The notes under the pieces: model-generated
The model's database searches: none
Told to the model about the DNA's origin: nothing
What the model saw: only the letters and a program-made list of their open reading frames with translations
DNA from: a bacterium
Lineage (GTDB): Bacteria; Omnitrophota; Gorgyraeia; Gygaellales; Profunditerraquicolaceae
Reading direction: 5' to 3'
Assembly (NCBI GenBank): GCA_021813045.1
Contig: JAKAMF010000001.1
Coordinates: 13,539-37,538, forward strand
DNA: 24,000 bases
Part shown: piece after piece, positions 6,615 to 17,544 of the stretch
How positions within the stretch are numbered: the stretch's first letter is position 1
Layout of the letters: each line of letters starts with the position of its first letter
Position numbers and translations under genes: made by a program

Positions 6615-7319
6615 TTATTTATTACAGCGGAAAACGATATAATCGCCGTCCTGGACGATGTATTCCTTCATTTCTAAGCGGATGTGATTGGCGGAGCGGG
6701 CCTTATTTAAAGAGCCATCATTGATCAAATCCTGGTAGCTGACTACTTCCGCGCGGATAAATCCTTTTTGTATATCCGAATGGATCGCACCCGAGGCCTC
6801 CCAGGCATTAGCGCCTTTTTTAATTGACCAGGCATGGGCATCTTTGTCGCCGGCAGTAAAATATGATATCCAGCCAAAATGATAATAAGCATTAAACAAT
6901 AATTTCCCCTTGTCTTCCAATCCTTCGGGCTTAGCTAAATATACCGGCTTAATGGTTAAAAGCGAATAACCGGAAATTAATTTTCCTTCTTCTTCATTCA
7001 GGGTTAATTCGGAGAGAAATTTTTCCTTATCCAATAGCTCTTTAAAACGGATAAATAAATTTTTCTCGATTTCATCGGCTGACCGGCCCAGGCGGGTTTC
7101 AACGAACTCCATATCATTGACGATCAAGTCAAGTTTGGCGCTTTCCGGACAAGCAATTCCGTCTGCCTCGATGATTTTCTCCGGATCCGTCACAATATCC
7201 GCCTGAATATATACTTCTTTCGGCGAATTAAACATAGTTTTAAGGACCTTGACCCGCGGATCCACGATGTTGGCGCGGCCGGGCGCAATACCTTCAATTC
7301 CCAAAATTCCGATTTTCAA
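6615..7319 (-). CDS. YchF-like protein lacking the P-loop NTPase motifs (retains the YchF C-terminal TGS/DUF933 domain)
   Basis: 234 aa. The C-terminus matches YchF closely (YFTAGDKDAHAWSIKKGANAWEASGAIHSDIQKGFIRAEVVSYQDL...YIVQDGDYIVFRCN). The N-terminus MKIGILGIEGIAPGRANIVDPR lacks GxxxxGKS. TTG start at 7319 with GAGGT 7 nt upstream, directly after the EF-G-like stop, so no upstream exon could supply a P-loop. Confidence 0.8.
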   Translation of the reverse strand: MKIGILGIEGIAPGRANIVDPRVKVLKTMFNSPKEVYIQADIVTDPEKIIEADGIACPESAKLDLIVNDMEFVETRLGRSADEIEKNLFIRFKELLDKEKFLSELTLNEEEGKLISGYSLLTIKPVYLAKPEGLEDKGKLLFNAYYHFGWISYFTAGDKDAHAWSIKKGANAWEASGAIHSDIQKGFIRAEVVSYQDLINDGSLNKARSANHIRLEMKEYIVQDGDYIVFRCNK

Positions 7320-7322
7320 TTT

Positions 7323-9257
7323 TTATACCTCGACTTCTTTCTTATTGTGTTCTGTCTGATATTTACTGATCACGGTGTTGGCTATTTTTGCCGGCGCTTG
7401 TTCATAGCGTAAAAACTTCATGTTAAAAACGCCTTTACCCTGCGTCATTGAGCGTAAATCCGTAGCATAAGTAAACATTTCTGACAAAGGCACTTGTGCC
7501 TTAAGAATATTTGTCCTCCCCTTTACATCCATACCCAGGGGCCTTCCCCGGCGGGCATTTAAATCACCGGAAACCTGCCCGACAAACTCTTCCGGGATAT
7601 AAACTTCTACTTCCATAATCGGCTCTAAAATTACCGGATGCGCCTCGGCTACTGCCTTACGAAAAGCCATCGCCCCGGCAATCTGAAAGGCCATATCCGA
7701 AGAATCAACATCATGGTAGGAGCCGTCATCTAAAACTACCTGCACGTCAACTATGGGGTAGCCGGCGATTACTCCTTCGACCATCGCATTACGAATGCCT
7801 TTTTCCACCGAAGGAATAAAATTACGCGGAATCGCCCCGCCAAAGATCTTGTCGACAAATTCAAACCCCTTACCGGAATCCAAAGGCTTGAGTTGAATCC
7901 AGGCATCGCCGTATTGGCCGCGGCCGCCGGATTGTTTCTTATACTTTCCCTGCACGCGCACTGACCGGGTCACGGTTTCGCGGTAAGGAATCTTGGGAGT
8001 GCCCAGATCTACTTCTACATTAAAACGTTTCTTTAAACGGCCGACCATCACTTGCAAATGCAGATCGCCTAAACCCGAAACGATTTCTTCTTTGGTTTCC
8101 GTGTCGCGGTGAACCTTTAAAGTCGGGTCTTCTAAAGTAAGCTTGGCTAGCGATTGCGAAATCTTTTCTTCGTCCTGGCGCGAACGCGGCTTAATAGACG
8201 CTGACATCATCGGTTCGGGAAAAACAAATCCCGGGAAGATCACCGGATGGGTATTTTCCGCTAAAGAATCCGCGGCATGCGTTTCTTTTAATTTGGGTAT
8301 CGCGACAATATCGCCGCAAGACGCCTCTTCAATCACTCTCTGCTCTTTGCCTTGCAAAAAATACAATTGGCCGAAACGTTCGGCTAACTTACGGCTGGCA
8401 TTATAAAAAGTAGAGCCGGAATGCAGCTTGCCGGAAAAAATCCGCACCAAGCTTAGCTGCCCGACGTAAGGATCAATAATATTCTTGAAAACAAAAGCGG
8501 AAAACGGAGCGCTGGCGCTAAAATCAACCTTCCCCTCAAGCAATGTTAAGGCCGGGCGCTGTTCCGGCGAAGCAAAATATTCCTTGATTGCCTTAAGCAG
8601 CTCATCCAGGCCCTGGTCTTTCAGGCCTGAGCCGAGGATAATCGGAAAAATTTTGGCGTTAACTACTGCCGAACGCAAGCCGGCGGCCAATTCTTCGCTT
8701 GATAAAGACCCGCTGTTTAAATATTTCTCCAGCAGCTTATCGTCGCTTTCCGCGACTAGATCCACCAGTTGATTCGTATCGCCCAACATCACTACTTTAT
8801 TAGAAAGAACTTCTTTGATTTCGCTGACAACTTTATCTATATCGGTATTTTCCGCGTCAATTTTATTAATAAAAATAATCCGCGGTAGGTTTAATTCCTG
8901 CGCCAAGGCCCAGGCCTTTTCCGTGCCTACGCCTACGCCGTTAACCGCATCAATAACAATTACCGCGTTATCCGCCGCGCGCACGCTGGAAACTGTCTCG
9001 CCGAAAAAATCAATATAACCGGGCGTATCCACGATCTGGATGCGCGTATCCGCGTAATCACAAAATAAAAAACTGGAATTAATCGAAATCTTGCGCTCGA
9101 TCTCATCCCAGCTGTAATCGCTGACCGTATTGCCCTCGAGCACCGTTCCCTTGCGCGAGGTAGCTTTACATTTAAAGAGCAAACTTTCCGCTAAGCTGGT
9201 TTTACCTGATTGAGCATGGCCCAAAAAGACAACGCTTCGTTTATTTTTCGCATCCAT
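7323..9257 (-). CDS. Elongation factor G paralogue (EF-G II-like translational GTPase)
   Basis: G1 GHAQSGKTS, G3 DTPGYIDF, G4 NKID, domain IV GSYHDVDSSDMAFQIAG, and five-domain length. The track ORF begins at a TTG at 9311. The ATG at 9257 has AAGGAG 8 nt upstream and gives 644 aa (MDAKNKRSVVFLGH...). Confidence 0.9.
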   Translation of the reverse strand: MDAKNKRSVVFLGHAQSGKTSLAESLLFKCKATSRKGTVLEGNTVSDYSWDEIERKISINSSFLFCDYADTRIQIVDTPGYIDFFGETVSSVRAADNAVIVIDAVNGVGVGTEKAWALAQELNLPRIIFINKIDAENTDIDKVVSEIKEVLSNKVVMLGDTNQLVDLVAESDDKLLEKYLNSGSLSSEELAAGLRSAVVNAKIFPIILGSGLKDQGLDELLKAIKEYFASPEQRPALTLLEGKVDFSASAPFSAFVFKNIIDPYVGQLSLVRIFSGKLHSGSTFYNASRKLAERFGQLYFLQGKEQRVIEEASCGDIVAIPKLKETHAADSLAENTHPVIFPGFVFPEPMMSASIKPRSRQDEEKISQSLAKLTLEDPTLKVHRDTETKEEIVSGLGDLHLQVMVGRLKKRFNVEVDLGTPKIPYRETVTRSVRVQGKYKKQSGGRGQYGDAWIQLKPLDSGKGFEFVDKIFGGAIPRNFIPSVEKGIRNAMVEGVIAGYPIVDVQVVLDDGSYHDVDSSDMAFQIAGAMAFRKAVAEAHPVILEPIMEVEVYIPEEFVGQVSGDLNARRGRPLGMDVKGRTNILKAQVPLSEMFTYATDLRSMTQGKGVFNMKFLRYEQAPAKIANTVISKYQTEHNKKEVEV

Positions 9258-9334
9258 CTTAAGCGCTCCTTTTTTAAAAAGGTTATTAGAAGAGGAAGGA
9301 AAATACTTCAAAGCCAGAAAGTTATGTCATTTGT

Positions 9335-9363
9335 ATTATATATTAAGGTAAGGGCAGGGTCAA
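9335..9363 (-). promoter_or_regulatory. Sigma-70-type promoter (TTGACC - 17 nt - TATAAT) for the EF-G-like/ychF-like/purH/folC/mnmE unit
   Basis: The minus strand reads TTGACC (9363-9358), then the 17-nt spacer CTGCCCTTACCTTAATA, then TATAAT (9340-9335). It sits about 80 nt upstream of the SD-supported ATG at 9257 and downstream of the kamA hairpin. Confidence 0.55.
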
Positions 9364-9392: not shown

Positions 9393-9413
9393 GGGGGCAG
9401 TGTGCCTGCCCCC
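9393..9413 (-). terminator. GC-rich stem-loop just after the kamA stop (terminator-like, no U-tract)
   Basis: 8-bp stem GGGGGCAG/CUGCCCCC with a 5-nt loop, beginning 6 nt after the kamA TAA. It is followed by CAAUUCCCCUUAAAAG rather than a U run, so it may be a non-canonical terminator or an mRNA-stabilising hairpin. Confidence 0.4.
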
Positions 9414-9419
9414 TAGGCC

Positions 9420-10595
9420 TTATTCCAGGTAGGTATAGATCTTGCCTTTGTAATTGCGCAGCACGTATTTTCCTTTGGCCTGGGAAAGGATATAATTCGG
9501 GCCAACCGGAATCTTGCCCCCGCCGCCCGGGCCGTCAATCACGTAAGTCGGCACCGCGTAGCCGGAAGTGTGCCCGCGTAACTTTTCCATAATATTAATC
9601 CCCACGGCAACCGGGGTGCGGAAATGCTGTGTGCCCCTGACCGGATCGCATTGGTAAATATAATACGGCCGCACGCGGATCTGCAAAAGCTCCTGCATCA
9701 GTTTGCGCATAATGTACGGGCGATCGTTGATCCCTTTTAAAAGCACGGTCTGGCTGCCTAAAGGAATCCCCGCGTCAGCCAGCATCTCGCAGGCAATCTT
9801 ACACCGTTTGGTAATCTCTTTAGGATGATTAAAGTGGATGCTTACCCAGACCGGTGAATATTTTTTTAGCGTGTTGGCTAATTTTTCCGTGATGCGCTGC
9901 GGCAAAGTCACCGGGGCGCGCGTGCCGATGCGCAAAAATTCCACATGCGGAATAGCGCGGATCTTCTGCAGCAGATTTTCAATTTCTTCGTCTTCCATAA
10001 TCAAAGGATCGCCTCCGGAAATCAGCACATCGCGGACTTTCCGGTTCGATTTTATATAATCAATCGCCGCGTCAAAGCGGTTAGAAGAATTATCCTGATG
10101 GGCGTGCTCGCCGACTAACCTTCTTCTGGTGCAATGGCGGCAATACATGGCGCAATGATCGGTCGCCAATAATAAAACCCTATCCGGATAACGATGTACC
10201 AGATGCGGAGCCGGTGAATCGCGGTCTTCCGCGCAAGGATCGGTCATTTCGTGCGGGGCAACGGTAAATTCCGTGCCCACCGGCACGGCCTGCCGGCGAA
10301 TCGGGCAAGCCGGGTCATCCGGGTCCATCAAAGTTGACCAATAAGGAGTAATCGCCATAGACAACCGTCCGCTGGCTTTTTTCAACCCCTCTTCTTCTTC
10401 CGGGCTCAACTTAATTACCTGCGCCAATTCTTCGCGGCTGCGGATACGGTGTTTTAACTGCCAGCGCCAATCCTCCCAATCCAAAGGATTGACATCTTTA
10501 TACAAAGCTATCTGCAGGTAATCCAAGGTTCTTCTTACTCGCGGCTGCAGCTCTTGTTGCGCTTTTTGATTCTCAACCGTCAATAGATTGCTCAA
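9420..10595 (-). CDS. kamA: Lysine 2,3-aminomutase (radical SAM / PLP, KamA/AblA type)
   Basis: 391 aa. CAMYCRHCTRRR radical-SAM motif (Cys codons 10154-10131), the GPGGGGK PLP-lysine motif, and RPYYIYQCD / VIDGPGGGGK, which keep the two Asp that bind the lysine epsilon-amino group in the Clostridium enzyme. Also HRYPDRVLLL and the N-terminal WxDWRWQ. TTG start at 10595 with GGGAGGAG 8-9 nt upstream, 1 nt after the preceding stop. Confidence 0.9.
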   Translation of the reverse strand: MSNLLTVENQKAQQELQPRVRRTLDYLQIALYKDVNPLDWEDWRWQLKHRIRSREELAQVIKLSPEEEEGLKKASGRLSMAITPYWSTLMDPDDPACPIRRQAVPVGTEFTVAPHEMTDPCAEDRDSPAPHLVHRYPDRVLLLATDHCAMYCRHCTRRRLVGEHAHQDNSSNRFDAAIDYIKSNRKVRDVLISGGDPLIMEDEEIENLLQKIRAIPHVEFLRIGTRAPVTLPQRITEKLANTLKKYSPVWVSIHFNHPKEITKRCKIACEMLADAGIPLGSQTVLLKGINDRPYIMRKLMQELLQIRVRPYYIYQCDPVRGTQHFRTPVAVGINIMEKLRGHTSGYAVPTYVIDGPGGGGKIPVGPNYILSQAKGKYVLRNYKGKIYTYLE

Positions 10596-10596
10596 T

Positions 10597-11616
10597 TTAA
10601 TTCTCCTCCCTTTTGGAATTTTTTAAGAATCTATCCTTGGCGCTAATCAGAATCATATTAATCAGGTCTTCGTATTTCATCCCTGCCGCGTAAGCCATGA
10701 CCGGAAAATTCGATTCTTTCGGGTCAAGCCCGGGCAAAGGGTTAATTTCTAAAACGTAGGGAACGTTATTTCTATCCAGACGGATATCCGTACGCGAAAT
10801 GTCCGAACAGCCAACCGCCTGATGCGTGGCCAGCGCCGTATCTTTAACCAGTTTTTCTGTTGCGGCGTCGAGCCGGGCCGGACAATGAAATGAAGGCACC
10901 AGGCCCAACTCCATATTGCCCTGAAATTCTTTCATCCGCCAGCTATAAAAAAATTCTCCGCTTTTTACGCAAGTATCAAAATCGATCTCTAAAATCGGCA
11001 GGACCTGCGCCTTGCCGTTTTCAATAATCCCGACGGTAAGTTCTTTACCGCGAATAAATTCTTCCACTAACGCTTCCTGTTTATAGTCACGGATAATCTC
11101 TTTTACTTTTTTAAACAGCGCTTCTTTGGTTTCTACGACATTAGAGGCATTAATTCCTTTGGCTGAGCCCTCGCAATTCGGCTTAACGATCAAAGGAAAT
11201 TTTAATGACGGGTCCAACTCTTCGGTTCCTTTAACAAAGAGCTGAAATGCCGGCGTGGGAATGTTTTCTGCTTTCAGGATTTTTTTGGTGAGTGATTTAT
11301 TTAAAGCCAGGGCCAGAGAAAAAGTATTTGACCCGGTGTAAGGAATATCTAAATAATCTAGAATGGCGGGGATCTCTGATTCGCGGAATTTACCGGATTT
11401 GCCTTCGGCGATATTAAAAACAAAATCTACTTTATTTTTGCGGAAATAAGAAAACAGGTCGGTATTAGACGCGTTAACCCGGCAAACCTCATGCCCCTTT
11501 TTTTCTATGGCCTGGGCTATCGCACCTACGGTTTCCGCAGAATCAAATTCGGAAAAATAATCCGCGGGTTTAGTTTCGTCTTTTTCTTTTAAATTATAAG
11601 TCAGCGCTACTTTCAT
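10597..11616 (-). CDS. ATP-grasp ligase, D-alanine--D-alanine ligase family (paralogue 2), substrate unknown
   Basis: 339 aa. FPLIVKPNCEGSAKG, EEFIRGKELTV and RTDIRLD...YVLEINPLPGL (ATP-grasp Mg/ATP ligands). The ATG directly abuts the upstream stop (TAG-ATG at 11619-11614). Confidence 0.85.
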   Translation of the reverse strand: MKVALTYNLKEKDETKPADYFSEFDSAETVGAIAQAIEKKGHEVCRVNASNTDLFSYFRKNKVDFVFNIAEGKSGKFRESEIPAILDYLDIPYTGSNTFSLALALNKSLTKKILKAENIPTPAFQLFVKGTEELDPSLKFPLIVKPNCEGSAKGINASNVVETKEALFKKVKEIIRDYKQEALVEEFIRGKELTVGIIENGKAQVLPILEIDFDTCVKSGEFFYSWRMKEFQGNMELGLVPSFHCPARLDAATEKLVKDTALATHQAVGCSDISRTDIRLDRNNVPYVLEINPLPGLDPKESNFPVMAYAAGMKYEDLINMILISAKDRFLKNSKREEN

Positions 11617-12606
11617 CTAAGCTAGGTTGTGCCTTTTTAAGGCACAGGCCAATATCCTGCCGACGATCTGCTCATAGGTCAGGCCGATTTCCCGGGCCAC
11701 CAAAGGAAAAACGTCTTCGGTGGACAAAGAAGGCAGGGGATTGATCTCCAAAACATACGGCTTGCCGTTTTTGTCTACGCGAAAGTCTACCCTGCCGAAA
11801 TCGCAGCACTCTACGGCGTTATATGTCTTTAAAGCCAGCTCAGCGATTTTTTTATCTAAATCAGCCGGGATTTTTGCCGGACAGATATATTCTAATTTAT
11901 CAGAATGAATGCGGGCAAAATTATAAAATTTATCGTTCAGCTGCAACCGGCCGTCAATTTTGATTTGCACCGTAGGCAGGGCCTCCGGCGGATCATTGCC
12001 CACTACTGCCACGGTAAATTCCTGGCCGGAAATAAATTCCTCTATTAAAGCCGGTTGTTTATAAGTGTTAATCACGTGCTCGGCCTGTTTTTTTAATTGT
12101 TCGCTGTTTTCCACGCGCGAATTCTCGCTTAAGCCCTTAGAAGATCCCTCGAAGCGCGGCTTAACAATTAAAGGAAATTTTAAATGGTCGGTATCGGAAA
12201 ACGATTCAATGTTCCTTATCTCTAGAAATTTCGGAGTGGGAATATTATCGGCAATAAAAATTTTCTTGGCCATAATTTTATCCAAAGTCAGGCCGAGGGT
12301 TAAAGCATCGGCTCCCACAAAAGGAATCCCCGCCATTTCCAGGATAATCGGCACTTGTGATTCGCGGTTCCTGCCGGTAAGGCCTTCAGAAATATTAAAA
12401 ACAATGTCTACTTCCAGATTATTTATTTTTTCCAGCAAGTTAGCGACATTGCCGATTTTTTTTACTTTATACCCCTGTGATTTGATCGCGCTGGCGATCA
12501 CTCCGACGGTAGAAGGGGCATCGAATTCGGCATTAGCATCCGGCGGGTCGCCTGCCTTAAACTGGTAATCTGTCTTTAAATCGTAAGTTAACCCAACAGT
12601 TTTCAT
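11617..12606 (-). CDS. ATP-grasp ligase, D-alanine--D-alanine ligase family (paralogue 1), substrate unknown
   Basis: 329 aa. FPLIVKPRFEGSSKG, EEFISGQEFTV and GRVDFRVD...YVLEINPLPSL. Clearly paralogous to the next gene over its whole length (shared LTY.LK, EFD...TVG.IA.AI, D.VFNI.EG..G..RES.P.IL). ATG at 12606. Confidence 0.85.
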   Translation of the reverse strand: MKTVGLTYDLKTDYQFKAGDPPDANAEFDAPSTVGVIASAIKSQGYKVKKIGNVANLLEKINNLEVDIVFNISEGLTGRNRESQVPIILEMAGIPFVGADALTLGLTLDKIMAKKIFIADNIPTPKFLEIRNIESFSDTDHLKFPLIVKPRFEGSSKGLSENSRVENSEQLKKQAEHVINTYKQPALIEEFISGQEFTVAVVGNDPPEALPTVQIKIDGRLQLNDKFYNFARIHSDKLEYICPAKIPADLDKKIAELALKTYNAVECCDFGRVDFRVDKNGKPYVLEINPLPSLSTEDVFPLVAREIGLTYEQIVGRILACALKRHNLA

Positions 12607-12619
12607 TAATTTTTAAAGT

Positions 12620-12657
12620 AAATAAAAAATAAGGGCCCCTGCTAAGCTTGAGCCCTT
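12620..12657 (-). terminator. Rho-independent terminator (8-bp GC-rich stem plus U6AU3)
   Basis: Minus strand: AAGGGCUC (12657-12650), 11-nt loop, GGGGCCCUU, then AUUUUUUAUUU (to 12620). The U-G wobble is only valid on the minus strand. It lies 89 nt after the HAD stop and ends 14 nt before the ATP-grasp ATG. Confidence 0.7.
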
Positions 12658-12745
12658 CTAAAATTCTACCGATTTTCCAATTTCTGCTTTTTTCTCCCCT
12701 TAAAAAATTTGTAACTTCTTTATTTACAATATTTTTTTATCACAA

Positions 12746-13385: not shown

Positions 13386-14369
13386 CTAATTATTGCTTTC
13401 TTTGTTTTTCTTAAAGAGGTCGAGGAACCTGTCTTCGTATTCTTTATAGACGTTCCATTTATCAAGCTCGGCTTTTAGTTCTGTGGCCTTTTCTAAGTTA
13501 GAACGCGATTCGCCGAAGAGCTTCTCAATCCTCTCCTTAACCGAGCCCGGGAGATTAGTCAGCTGGCTGAGCGATTTTTTAATTTTGTCGATCTCTTCTT
13601 CGCCGATCGGCCCAAGCGGAGCGCCTACTTTCAAATAATCTAAAAGTTTATTGATCTCTTCTTCCATATGGTGCGCCTGTAAAAGCAAAGTAGTAAGATT
13701 AAGTTTGATTTCTAAAATCCTCGCCAAAACAGCCAATACCGCGGCGGCGGCCTTAGGATTTTCAATTTGCACGGTATAAAGCGGGATTTCTCCTAAAAGA
13801 CAAAATCCATCCAACCCTTCTCTTTTGGCGATCCCTAAAAATAAACCATTCATCCCGCTAATCTGACCTTCCGATAAAACAGTCAGATTATGCTTCTTTA
13901 GAGAATTAATCATATCTTTACTGGTGGCGGTAAACCAAACGCTGGAATCCTGGGTGTGTTCAATCGGCTGCGGCATAGCGGCAAAGCTGATTGCAACCTT
14001 CGCCTTCATTGTTTTGGCTACAGAAAATATGCGCTGACAATAACGGTCAGCCTTAGCCAAATCCGGTTGGCTATTGCTGATAAAAATAATCAAATCGTTA
14101 ACCGGCTGCTTAACGGTTTTTCTCGCCGGGTTCTTCCAGAAATAAAAAACTCCGTGCGGTAATTCCGGAAGTCCTAAAACGCCTTCCTTGACCTGGCTAG
14201 CCGACAAATAAAAAAAATCCTCTGAGGCAACCGTGGCGAATTCTTCCGCCTTGAGTTGCTCAACCAAAAACTTGGCTGACTTAAACGCCACCTCGCCCAT
14301 CCCCGGCCAGGCAACAATAAAATACGGGTTACGTAAACTCGGCCGCTTAGTAAATTTGATCCCTTCCAT
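13386..14369 (-). CDS. PAC2-family (proteasome-assembly-chaperone-like) protein with a C-terminal coiled-coil extension
   Basis: 327 aa. The N-terminal ~230 aa resemble PAC2/PF09754-type proteins (LRNPYFIVAWPGMGEVA..., GLFLGIAKREGLDGFCLLGEIP). The last ~90 aa are charged and heptad-like. GAGGAG lies 8 nt upstream of the ATG at 14369. Family assignment is from memory of the family pattern, not from a search. Confidence 0.6.
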   Translation of the reverse strand: MEGIKFTKRPSLRNPYFIVAWPGMGEVAFKSAKFLVEQLKAEEFATVASEDFFYLSASQVKEGVLGLPELPHGVFYFWKNPARKTVKQPVNDLIIFISNSQPDLAKADRYCQRIFSVAKTMKAKVAISFAAMPQPIEHTQDSSVWFTATSKDMINSLKKHNLTVLSEGQISGMNGLFLGIAKREGLDGFCLLGEIPLYTVQIENPKAAAAVLAVLARILEIKLNLTTLLLQAHHMEEEINKLLDYLKVGAPLGPIGEEEIDKIKKSLSQLTNLPGSVKERIEKLFGESRSNLEKATELKAELDKWNVYKEYEDRFLDLFKKNKESNN

Positions 14370-15607: not shown

Positions 15608-16927
15608 TTACTTCTTCTTAGCTTTTGCGGCCACGGCAGCAATAATTGCCGCGCCCACCCCTGAGCCGTCTTTAGTCAAGACCATTTGAACCTTTTTAGC
15701 TTTTTGCCCAAAAATAGTTTTCAGAGCTTTGCGCATCTGCCTGCTGAAAACCGGATGTTTTTCATAAACACTGCCGTCAATAGCAACTGTATGTTTTTTC
15801 TTTAAGGCCGGATCTATGCGTTTAATTACCGCAGCCAGACAAGAACCGCTGATATTCGCTGCCCTAGCCGCAACTAATTCGCAAACTTTTTTTACTAAAG
15901 CTGCTTGGCTAAAAGAACATTTCTTTATCCCGAAATATTTTAAAATCTTTTTAGTTCGGCTAAGATCAGCCGTGCAATCGGCTTCGATTTCTGACATATA
16001 TTCCGACTTAAAACTTTTTGAACGGCCAAACAAAGCAGTGTCCCGTTGATCAAAAATTAAATCTTTTTTGCATAAATCTACCAGAATCAACCTGACGATC
16101 TCCCCCAGATACATCCCGCCGACCATCTTTTCTAAAATTTGCTCGCCGGAGTTTTCCGAAGCGCGGTCTAACTGACGATCATAACAAGAAACCGTCAATT
16201 TATTAAAATTCCCCCACTCAATATTAACAATCATCTTTGCCCCGGACGGTTTGGTTCCGCGCCATTTAATAATTTTAGCCAGCGCCTCGCGGTAACAAGC
16301 GTTAGTCCCTGTGCCGAGAATTATTCCCACGTCGCTATGAACATCACTGTAGCCACGACAGACCAAGGTTCCGACAGTATCATTAACTAAAGCGGTAATT
16401 TTCAAATTATAAATGCCCTGCCGGTAAAGCGCGCGCTCGAGTAACTTGACCACATCCTTACCAACCACCCCCTTAGCGCAAAAATCTTTAGTCCAATGCG
16501 CCAAGACTCCCGAAGCAATCGCTGTCTGCCTGACCGGAAAAGAAAAAGTAAATCCCGCTTCAATCGGCTGCCAGCGAAGTAAATCCTTGATCTTTTTAGC
16601 GATAAATCCAAAAAGCTCATCCGCTGAAACACGGGTATATTTCTTATCAATCACGAATTTTTTTTCTTTTAACTTCTTGATCCGGCCGCGGCCGCTTAAT
16701 TCGATTTCCAAAACACGTAAATTCGTACCACCCAAATCAACAGCGATAAATCTGCCCCGCTCATCCCCTTTGGGCACATCTACGTAAGCAGGGATCATTT
16801 TCAGGGAACTCTTTCGACCGGCCAGGCCGTTAGCCATTTCCCGGCTAAAAGCAGAAATAATTTCCCGACAATCCGCCGGTTTAAGCTCAAATTGTTCTTT
16901 TAAATTTTTTAAGAATTGGCTGGGCAT
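15608..16927 (-). CDS. Hexokinase (eukaryote-type hexokinase family)
   Basis: Near-canonical hexokinase signatures: AVDLGGTNLRV, GFTFSFPV, ALVNDTVGTL, GIILGTGTNACY, VNIEWGNF and AIDGSVYEKHPVF. The track ORF starts at a GTG at 16936; I prefer the ATG at 16927 (MPSQFLKNL...). Either start overlaps the upstream gene's 3' end. Confidence 0.85.
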   Translation of the reverse strand: MPSQFLKNLKEQFELKPADCREIISAFSREMANGLAGRKSSLKMIPAYVDVPKGDERGRFIAVDLGGTNLRVLEIELSGRGRIKKLKEKKFVIDKKYTRVSADELFGFIAKKIKDLLRWQPIEAGFTFSFPVRQTAIASGVLAHWTKDFCAKGVVGKDVVKLLERALYRQGIYNLKITALVNDTVGTLVCRGYSDVHSDVGIILGTGTNACYREALAKIIKWRGTKPSGAKMIVNIEWGNFNKLTVSCYDRQLDRASENSGEQILEKMVGGMYLGEIVRLILVDLCKKDLIFDQRDTALFGRSKSFKSEYMSEIEADCTADLSRTKKILKYFGIKKCSFSQAALVKKVCELVAARAANISGSCLAAVIKRIDPALKKKHTVAIDGSVYEKHPVFSRQMRKALKTIFGQKAKKVQMVLTKDGSGVGAAIIAAVAAKAKKK

Positions 16928-17544
16928 ACCTGACACCTAGGTTTACTTTTCCAACAAAAATCCTTGGCTAATTTCACTAAAAGCGCGTGGTATTCGTTGA
17001 ATAATTTTACATCTTTTTTTAAATTTTGCATAAATAAATCCTGTGTCTGATAGTAATCGGCGCGGCGATTAATAAATTTATGCCGGCTGAGTATTCTTTT
17101 GGTATAGGCATCAATCACAAACACCGGTTTATGCAGGCCGTAGAGTAAAATTGAATCCGCGGTTTCCGGGCCAATACCATTCACGGATAATAACTCCTGG
17201 CGTAAAATATTCCAATCCTTTTGCCGCATTTTAGCTAAATCACCGGAATAGTTTTTAGCCAAATACCGCAAAAAATTTTTCAAGCGCTTGGCTTTAATAT
17301 TGTAATAACCGGCCGGCCGGATTAAAACGGCTAATCTCCCCTCCGGCAGCGAATGCATTTTTTTAAAACTCAATAATTTGCGCTTTTTTAAATTATTAAT
17401 CGCCTTTTCTACATTCTGCCAGTTAGTATTTTGCGTAAGGATCGCGCCGACCATTACCTCAAAAGCGCTTTCTCCCGGCCACCAATGCTGCGGGCCGAAA
17501 TTCTTATATAATTTCTCATAGAGAGAAATTAAATCTACTTTCAT
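16909..17544 (-). CDS. Endonuclease III-related HhH-GPD DNA glycosylase (probably monofunctional)
   Basis: 211 aa. GAILTQNTNW, HhH motif SVNGIGPETADSILLYG, catalytic Asp in VFVIDAYTKRIL, and a C-terminal Cys cluster CWKSKPRCQVCPANS. ATGA overlap with the PilZ gene stop. Confidence 0.85.
   Translation of the reverse strand: MKVDLISLYEKLYKNFGPQHWWPGESAFEVMVGAILTQNTNWQNVEKAINNLKKRKLLSFKKMHSLPEGRLAVLIRPAGYYNIKAKRLKNFLRYLAKNYSGDLAKMRQKDWNILRQELLSVNGIGPETADSILLYGLHKPVFVIDAYTKRILSRHKFINRRADYYQTQDLFMQNLKKDVKLFNEYHALLVKLAKDFCWKSKPRCQVCPANS

Follow-up and report, generated by a model that had tools for sequence, protein, structure and literature searches.

In several characterised ligations a beta-amino acid serves as the acyl donor, as in carnosine synthase, EpmA and the ATP-grasp step of blasticidin synthesis, and PylC works likewise. 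Carnosine synthase and Ngg are ATP-grasp enzymes of subfamilies other than Ddl (D-Ala-D-Ala ligase), and the PylB/PylC reaction is reportedly described in detail by Gaston et al. in 2011. PylC belongs to the Ddl/CPS superfamily (PMC2933860), ATP-grasp enzymes assemble peptidyl nucleosides, blasticidin S included (PMC11641026), and Ngg combines acetylation with peptide-bond formation in the synthesis of N-acetylglutaminylglutamine amide (NAGGN) (PMC8070244). Here we analyze a stretch of 24,000 nucleotides (the window) from a bacterium of the phylum Omnitrophota (GenBank contig JAKAMF010000001.1, positions 13,539 to 37,538), in which an operon on the reverse strand encodes two ATP-grasp ligases of the Ddl fold, which we call grasp-A and grasp-B, and a lysine 2,3-aminomutase, KamA. 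We find this association conserved across phyla, and we consider it probable that the three genes form one biosynthetic module for an amide that contains beta-lysine.

The operon runs from grasp-A (11617..12606, 329 amino acids, the ligase type that we call the Omnitrophota A type) through its paralogue grasp-B (10597..11616, 339 amino acids) to KamA (9420..10595, 391 amino acids, a radical S-adenosylmethionine (SAM) and pyridoxal phosphate (PLP) enzyme with a TTG start). The start of grasp-B abuts the stop of grasp-A, the junction reading GCT-TAG followed directly by ATG-AAA, and the junction between grasp-B and KamA reads GGGAGGAG-AAT-TAA-A-TTG, where GGGAGGAG at approximately 10610..10603 is the Shine-Dalgarno (SD) sequence of KamA, 7 nt 5' of the TTG. 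An earlier note on this DNA, made from the sequence alone, had described three such open reading frames (ORFs) with these two junctions, and its coordinates proved exact. We considered the missing SD sequence before grasp-A as an oddity and rejected it, because only about 6 of the 19 genes in the window have a good one. A 167-amino-acid ORF on the opposite strand within grasp-A (12065..12568, +) has no support and is almost certainly spurious. Close homologues of grasp-A carry Candidatus Omnitrophota names.

The earlier note read the three genes as one functional unit, and comparison between genomes bears this out. An alignment of 9 sequences, used to scan genomes, yielded 80 loci, in which ORFs were called and then searched with the window proteins; 12 of these loci could not be judged as a contig end lay too close, and 2 had no called ligase ORF. 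KamA lies at most 6 kb from a ligase in 62 of the 66 judgeable loci and is absent in 4. The linked loci are of the Omnitrophota type (43), or come from Chloroflexota/Dehalococcoidales (7), Desulfobacterota/Syntrophales (4), Bathyarchaeia (4), Elusimicrobia (2), Nitrospirota (1) and Bacillota (1), so that the linkage spans at least 7 phyla, Archaea included. Gene fusions tell the same story. A deep representative search gave 1170 clusters at E <= 1e-30, and among its 150 best representatives about 40 carry two ligase modules in one protein of 540-790 amino acids; fusions confirmed by Pfam include grasp with grasp, grasp-KamA (P0209) and KamA-grasp (P0214 and P0254). Together, conserved linkage and these Rosetta-stone fusions give strong and independent support to a single predicted pathway in which KamA and the ligases act, and to joint action of the ligase pair. 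The number of ligases varies: grasp-B is present in 36 of the 49 Omnitrophota-type loci, and a single ligase accompanies KamA in the other 13, in both Elusimicrobia loci and in the Nitrospirota locus. No second ligase was found near the locus of the grasp-KamA fusion P0209. These single-ligase lineages indicate that the minimal unit is one ligase plus KamA. As a separate observation, metagenome-assembled genomes (MAGs) labelled 'uncultured Planctomycetales', 'Planctomycetales bacterium' or 'Margulisiibacteriota' (loci L011, L013, L014, L018, L020, L023, L024, L027, L030 and others) bear an Omnitrophota-type operon (72-77% identity), share its synteny and have the leader, described below, that is specific to Omnitrophota; their labels are probably wrong.

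A small GNAT protein of about 170 amino acids is the only accessory gene that recurs across phyla. It lies directly 3' of the ligases in 7 Chloroflexota/Syntrophales loci, and another GNAT stands beside the Bathyarchaeia module; within 10 kb on either side of the operon in the window there is none. The GNATs of the other phyla do not match the AblB model TIGR03827, and the one from Bathyarchaeia scores 26 bits with the model of the streptothricin acetyltransferase Sat4, against a cut-off of 380. In the Nitrospirota locus the place of a GNAT after the grasp-KamA pair is taken by a protein that consists of a free-standing MprF C-terminal (LPG_synthase_C/DUF2156) domain (L080, 12117..13118, +). 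This arrangement was seen once, and the protein, which is of the GNAT-fold aminoacyl-transferase type, may be an alternative capping or transfer enzyme.

KamA identifies the amino acid on which the module would act. It passes the AblA/lysine 2,3-aminomutase model TIGR03820 (527.3 bits, cut-off 525.4), and it fails the models for glutamate 2,3-aminomutase (475 bits, cut-off 650), arginine 2,3-aminomutase (TIGR04468, 409 bits, cut-off 600) and EpmB (TIGR03821, 255.8 bits, cut-off 369.3). The pass is marginal because only positions 6-360 of the 417 in the profile are matched, and the ligase-linked KamAs of other phyla, at 385-487 bits, stay under the TIGR03820 cut-off. The solved enzyme of Clostridium subterminale (PDB 2A5H) matches KamA at E = 1.2e-147, with an alignment that stops at residue 367 of 416. 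The radical SAM motif CAMYCRHC (C148/C152/C155) is present, the sequence DGPGGGGK carries the PLP lysine K361 (K337 of 2A5H), and the residues that bind lysine correspond one to one (R157 to R134, D317 to D293, D354 to D330). The CxxxCxxC motif is kept in 63 of 63 ligase-linked KamAs, and the equivalents of R134, D293, D330 and K337 in at least 62 of the 63, in all phyla. As ligands for all three functional groups of lysine are in place, free L-lysine is the predicted substrate and beta-lysine the predicted product. The earlier note had taken this enzyme for a lysine-type rather than a glutamate-type mutase, with both aspartates present, and the model scores and residues support its assignment as a lysine-type 2,3-aminomutase, neither an EpmB nor a glutamate mutase. 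KamA lacks a C-terminal domain, ending at the equivalent of residue 367 of 2A5H, and the equivalent of Cys268 is an arginine; the homologous tail is likewise absent from every ligase-linked KamA, all of which are of a 'short form' that ends near this residue and has Arg in place of Cys268. If the ligands of the inter-subunit Zn site of 2A5H are, as we assume, Cys268, Cys375, Cys377 and Cys380, the whole site would be missing from KamA. Given this and the missing domain, its oligomeric state may differ.

Both ligases have a Ddl fold, and they do not appear to be Ddl enzymes. The best match of each in every library is Ddl, and both match PF07478 (Dala_Dala_lig_C; grasp-A at E = 1.6e-40, grasp-B at E = 4.5e-34). 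The AlphaFold model of grasp-A (pLDDT 90) aligns over its full length with Ddl structures in Foldseek (TM 0.79-0.85) at about 25% identity, and the omega-loop region is present in the ligases, as expected for a closed small-molecule site. Taking as reference the ATP/Mg and catalytic residues of Ddl (K97, K144, E180, E187, R255, D257, E270 and N272), we find all of them in grasp-A (K110, K149, E189, E196, R272, D274, E287 and N289), and a MAFFT alignment shows that they are kept in more than 120 family members, grasp-B included. This full conservation predicts that both proteins are active ligases. They share 41% identity with each other, and all NCBIfam cut-offs for Ddl (243-246) lie above their scores (165-201 bits): grasp-A reaches 168.6 bits and grasp-B 164.8 bits with TIGR01205 (cut-off 245.65), and 200.7 and 197.8 bits, respectively, with NF002378 (cut-off 243).

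The D-Ala pocket also differs, and does so systematically. We compared the positions of Lys215, Tyr216, Ser281 and Leu282 of DdlB in HMMER alignments and with MAFFT. In grasp-A they are occupied by R232, I233 (for Tyr216), D298 (for Ser281) and V299, and the change from Ser281 to D298 is found in 50 of 50 Omnitrophota grasp-A copies. In grasp-B they are K229 (for Lys215), E230 (for Tyr216), S302 (for Ser281) and N303 (for Leu282). A third type of pocket belongs to the second ligase of Chloroflexota and Bathyarchaeia (S150 to A/G, Y216 to W, G276 to D). The acidic residue of grasp-A at the site that holds the D-Ala2 carboxylate in Ddl suggests a cationic nucleophile. In the N-domain the motif D23-x3-E27-F-D29 is invariant and would suit a diamino acyl donor, a reading for which the alignment of this domain to Ddl is unreliable. 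Scores below the cut-offs, altered pockets, the lack of mur/dcw context and orthologous modules in Bathyarchaeia thus support the view that grasp-A and grasp-B, two diverged paralogues in the words of the earlier note, are not bona fide Ddl.

From these properties we propose the following route. KamA would bind free L-lysine at three points, the alpha-amine through PLP, the carboxylate through Arg157 and the epsilon-ammonium through Asp317/Asp354, and would turn it into beta-lysine by the radical SAM/PLP mechanism, as its conserved residues imply. The ligases would use ATP to form an acyl-phosphate and then an amide bond, to judge from their fold, their intact catalytic residues and analogy. 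The acyl donor would most likely be beta-lysine, activated as beta-lysyl-phosphate and transferred to an amine. As the second-substrate pockets differ, with an Asp in grasp-A and a Ser in grasp-B at the D-Ala2-carboxylate site, the two paralogues probably attach different partners or act in sequence, so that the second would add or accept a different partner. The predicted product is most likely a small soluble di- or tripeptide of beta-lysine or a short oligomer, which the GNAT of Chloroflexota, Syntrophales and Bathyarchaeia would cap by N-acetylation. Because the module is small, the Ddl-type active site closed and a GNAT associated, the physiological role is most plausibly that of a compatible-solute-like compound (compare N-epsilon-acetyl-beta-lysine and NAGGN). 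More broadly, and more tentatively than for the module itself, we suggest that a minimal combination of KamA and a Ddl-like ligase may make peptides or amides of beta-lysine without the ribosome, as a family of compounds so far unrecognised; candidates are oligomers of the beta-lysyl-(beta-)lysine kind and dipeptides with a beta-lysyl residue, N-acetylated in some lineages. The module would have spread horizontally among uncultured anaerobic bacteria and archaea, and in Omnitrophota a leader of a new type, with mini-ORF and terminator, would control it.

Several observations weigh against this proposal or narrow it. That beta-lysine is the acyl donor, although most likely, rests on analogy. 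The 'two successive ligations' of the earlier note are not universal, given the single ligase of 13 of the 49 Omnitrophota-type loci and of several phyla. Pocket types differ between the Omnitrophota A ligase, the Omnitrophota B ligase, the KamA-adjacent ligase of other phyla and their second ligase, and with pockets so non-uniform the partner substrate may differ between lineages. A few family members, among them proteins from Bacillota and Kofleriaceae and the double-grasp proteins of L085 and L086, have no KamA nearby. Fused double ATP-grasps without KamA within 7-10 kb, Kofleriaceae included, occur at L085 (7001..11484), L075 (8942..11215) and L086, and at L085, a MAG contig of unstated taxonomy, genes for a GNAT and an amidohydrolase come after the fusion. 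These KamA-less members indicate that the ligase family is not restricted to beta-lysine. Finally, the profile search returned proteins from MAGs only, and every carrier is uncultured.

The same enzymes could serve another end and make a bioactive compound, be it a secondary metabolite or a weapon, in the form of a cationic oligomer or peptide of beta-lysine that would be comparable to the streptothricin side chain, act on microbes or on a host and fit the predatory or episymbiotic lifestyle proposed for Omnitrophota. The Asp in the nucleophile pocket of grasp-A would be well matched to a positively charged acceptor, for instance a second beta-lysine; Omnitrophota have been proposed to depend on hosts (bioRxiv 10.64898/2026.06.07.730766); and beta-lysine oligomers are known in streptothricins (reference list of PMC11641026). 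The weak Sat4 likeness of the Bathyarchaeia GNAT could be read as similar to self-resistance, but it is far under the cut-off of that model. The module has only 2-4 genes, and genes for export, a scaffold or tailoring are not conserved with it across phyla; its carriers are free-living anaerobes from many phyla, and in Omnitrophota it lies within conserved housekeeping synteny. We regard such a weapon as unlikely.

Slightly less likely still is protein modification, in which the ATP-grasps would attach beta-lysine to an amine or the C-terminus of a protein, either Lys34 of EF-P, as a non-orthologous replacement of EpmA, or a carrier that is tagged in the manner of RimK, TTL or LysX. There are precedents for such a role, since RimK, TTL and LysX are protein-modifying ATP-grasps and the KamA-family enzyme EpmB feeds the beta-lysylation of EF-P. 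RimK, TTL and LysX belong, however, to other ATP-grasp subfamilies, whereas grasp-A and grasp-B are of the Ddl type in fold and length, omega-loop region included, and KamA scores as AblA, not as EpmB (256 bits, with 369 needed). The neighbourhood also invites this interpretation, as the Omnitrophota operon adjoins genes for translation GTPases (EF-G-like and YchF-like) and the Desulfobacterota module is followed by genes for a PUA methyltransferase and AspRS. But the EF-G-like and YchF-like neighbours are split off by a hairpin, a promoter of their own and, in other genomes, inserted genes, and are absent outside Omnitrophota; the module encodes no conserved small target protein; and it occurs in Bathyarchaeia, while archaea use aIF5A and not EF-P. 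Pfam found neither a tRNA-synt_2 gene nor an EF-P gene in the window.

It is very improbable that the two ATP-grasps are the genome's real D-Ala-D-Ala (or D-Ala-D-X) ligases, with kamA adjacent to supply, for example, beta-lysine for a stem peptide or cross-bridge: Ddl is their best library match, JGI annotates them as D-alanine-D-alanine ligase and the peptidoglycan pathways of Omnitrophota are reported to be complete, K01921 being called present in 176 of 176 genomes (bioRxiv 10.64898/2026.06.07.730766), a count that could in principle rest on grasp paralogues, but the scores of the two proteins fall short of the curated cut-offs, NCBI names them only 'ATP-grasp domain-containing protein', the equivalents of Tyr216, Ser281 and Leu282 are changed, none of the 80 loci has a mur or fts neighbour, the same module occurs in an archaeal group (Bathyarchaeia) and fusions to KamA exist. 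A canonical Ddl was not found in the 1.19 Mb of fetched loci, a search confined to the loci and uninformative for whole genomes.

A module for a beta-lysine amide, the reading we prefer, is in Omnitrophota preceded by an operon-specific 5' leader (12607..12745, reverse strand) directly upstream of grasp-A. The earlier note had seen in this region a strong terminator that insulates the operon, and this interpretation has to be revised: the hairpin does fold, at -15 kcal/mol, and it is part of a conserved leader that belongs to the operon. In the window the leader consists of an extended -10-like element, TTGTGATAAAAAAAT (12745..12731), an SD-like sequence, AAGGGGAG (12701..12694), the sequence AAATTGGAAAA with a TTG at 12680..12678 that opens a mini-ORF (MENR and a stop), the hairpin AAGGGCUC/GGGCCCUU (12657..12631) and a U-run (12630..12619), with 12 nt from its end to the grasp-A ATG. 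The order and spacing of these blocks 5' of grasp-A recur in more than 25 loci of Omnitrophota (for example L005-L036), independent of the upstream gene: TTGTGATAAAAAAT (extended -10-like), T-run-GGAGG, approximately 13 nt, AAATTGGAAAAA, approximately 20 nt, the hairpin and the U-run. The hairpin arms GGGCUC/GAGCCC are conserved and the loops variable, and the grasp-A ATG often follows 2-17 nt after the U-run.

We built a covariance model of the leader (R1) from 23 leaders. It matches the window at 12708..12621 with 63 bits and finds one match per locus, always 5' of grasp-A, including in 11 loci outside the training set, and none elsewhere in 1.19 Mb. The arm sequence of the hairpin is almost confined to the leader site. 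Rfam holds no family that matches, whether the whole window is searched at gathering thresholds or the leader at E <= 10. The TTG mini-ORF varies from 1 to 27 codons, and its stop overlaps the grasp-A ATG in four loci; with this range of lengths and no conserved sequence, we rejected it as a conserved peptide. In most loci there is no room for a promoter after the U-run, so the hairpin probably lies in the mRNA leader of the operon and would act as an attenuator-like control of read-through. In the proposed scheme, the terminator-like hairpin of the Omnitrophota leader would thus probably govern read-through into the three genes. This makes the leader a candidate for a new cis-regulatory element.

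At its other end the unit is bounded by a G+C-rich hairpin without a U-run directly after the KamA stop (9413..9393, -21.1 kcal/mol) and, 3' of it, by a sigma-70-like promoter, TTGACC-17-TATAAT (9363..9335), that matches at 11 of 12 positions and serves the next gene; here the boundary drawn in the earlier note stands. The next gene (7323..9311, -) encodes an EF-G-like paralogue with all five EF-G domains and has this strong promoter to itself. The public gene caller gives this protein 644 amino acids, and counted from the first TTG it has 662. Next comes the gene for a YchF-like protein of 234 amino acids (6615..7319, -) that has only the C-terminal YchF domain (Pfam, residues 151-233) and, by Pfam, no G domain in its N-terminal half; many Omnitrophota loci have a YchF-like protein of about this length, and a few (L040-L042) a form of 369 amino acids. 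The EF-G-like paralogue is always near the operon in Omnitrophota, and in several other genomes of the phylum 1-3 unrelated genes are inserted between it and KamA. We therefore rejected a functional link of the EF-G-like and YchF-like genes to the operon as synteny at the level of the phylum, given their own promoter, the genes inserted in other genomes and their absence outside Omnitrophota.

An M20 hydrolase gene upstream had been linked to the module in the earlier note as carnosinase-like, and this link did not survive. The gene encodes a deacylase of the ArgE/DapE family (TIGR01910, 244 bits, cut-off 217.6) that is tied to the operon only by loose synteny within Omnitrophota. PAC2 and HAD genes, and often more, lie between; many Omnitrophota loci have no M20 gene, and the other phyla all lack it. 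The PAC2 (proteasome assembly chaperone family) protein of this bacterium is encoded at 13386..14369 (-) and a hexokinase-family (Hexokinase_1/2) protein at 15608..16936 (-); proteins of either family are met more typically in archaea or eukaryotes. In Desulfobacterota, the PUA methyltransferase and AspRS genes mentioned above lie 3' of the module.

The family matters for annotation in the first place. Among proteins annotated as 'D-alanine-D-alanine ligase' or 'ATP-grasp domain-containing protein' there are 5857 matches at E <= 1e-10 and 7863 at E <= 1e-20, each among 8000 candidates scored. Many metagenomic proteins with such names belong to a family that is functionally tied to lysine 2,3-aminomutase, and its recognition corrects a systematic mis-annotation. 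Reports of a universal ddl in Omnitrophota rest on K01921 or COG1181 assignments (bioRxiv 10.64898/2026.06.07.730766; PMC12283558), calls that paralogues of the grasp-A and grasp-B kind could inflate or confound, and conclusions drawn from COG1181/K01921 about the peptidoglycan capacity of Omnitrophota, Chloroflexota and archaea could be affected. If our interpretation is true, it adds a fifth fate for beta-lysine and points to a new metabolite in abundant uncultured subsurface lineages. A module of only 2-3 genes is also directly amenable to heterologous expression.

Compared with described systems, the operon resembles several and coincides with none of them. Unlike lysine fermentation (kamA-kamDE-kdd-kce), the module has no beta-lysine 5,6-aminomutase, and neither this enzyme nor the downstream fermentation genes were found in the window or in the conserved neighbourhoods. 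More generally, the known partner genes of beta-lysine metabolism (ablB, EpmA, kamDE/kdd/kce and nonribosomal peptide synthetase genes) are all missing within 10 kb on either side of the operon (Pfam table), just as the earlier note had stated. With the Ddl/VanA family the ligases share the fold, the three-domain architecture and all catalytic and ATP-binding residues, but they differ in their sub-threshold scores, their pocket, their gene context and their occurrence in archaea. AblA/AblB, which make the osmolyte N-epsilon-acetyl-beta-lysine in methanogens and some bacteria, have the same first enzyme, as the TIGR03820 match of KamA shows, and likewise form a small operon that turns lysine into a beta-lysine amide, with a GNAT in the module in some phyla. 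Unlike that system, the window has no AblB and the GNATs elsewhere miss the AblB model, the module would form its amide by an ATP-grasp ligase instead of or besides acetyl-CoA, and its KamA lacks the C-terminal domain. EpmB/EpmA also pair a KamA-family supply of beta-lysine with an ATP-dependent ligation, to the epsilon-amine of a lysine in EF-P, but the KamA of the window fails the EpmB model, its ligase partner is an ATP-grasp and not a LysRS paralogue, and EpmA and efp are not nearby.

Closer in logic are systems in which an ATP-grasp enzyme makes the amide. NAGGN synthesis (Ngg/AsnO) and carnosine synthase yield a small amide or dipeptide solute by ATP-dependent ligation, in the case of NAGGN with N-acetylation (PMC8070244), although from other substrates and without an aminomutase. 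In blasticidin S synthesis, with the arginine 2,3-aminomutase BlsG, a beta-amino acid from a KamA-family enzyme is coupled by an ATP-grasp via an acyl-phosphate (PMC11641026), and our KamA stands close to the arginine mutase family TIGR04468 (409 bits). The differences lie in the two Asp residues of KamA, which are those of a lysine-type enzyme, in its score below the cut-off of the arginine model, in a ligase of the Ddl type and in the absence of nucleoside-biosynthesis genes. In the PylB/PylC pair a radical SAM lysine mutase is followed by an ATP-grasp ligase of the Ddl/CPS superfamily that forms a bond between the rearranged amino acid and an amine (PMC2933860). PylB, however, is biotin-synthase-like while the mutase of the window is of the KamA family; pylD, pylS and pylT were not found, the module has no dehydrogenase gene, and no PylC structure was retrieved from PDB with grasp-A at E <= 1e-5. 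In a literature search on aminomutase, KamA or beta-lysine together with ATP-grasp or Ddl, the module was not described in any paper found. The claim of the earlier note that no characterised pathway has this composition therefore stands, and the module is apparently uncharacterised. Its further claim that there is no known counterpart goes too far, as PylB/PylC, blasticidin and NAGGN use the same logic. By analogy, the biosynthetic logic proposed for KamA and its ligases is already known, and PylB/PylC, the blasticidin aminomutase with its ATP-grasp, NAGGN synthesis and carnosine synthase would be its closest mechanistic precedents.

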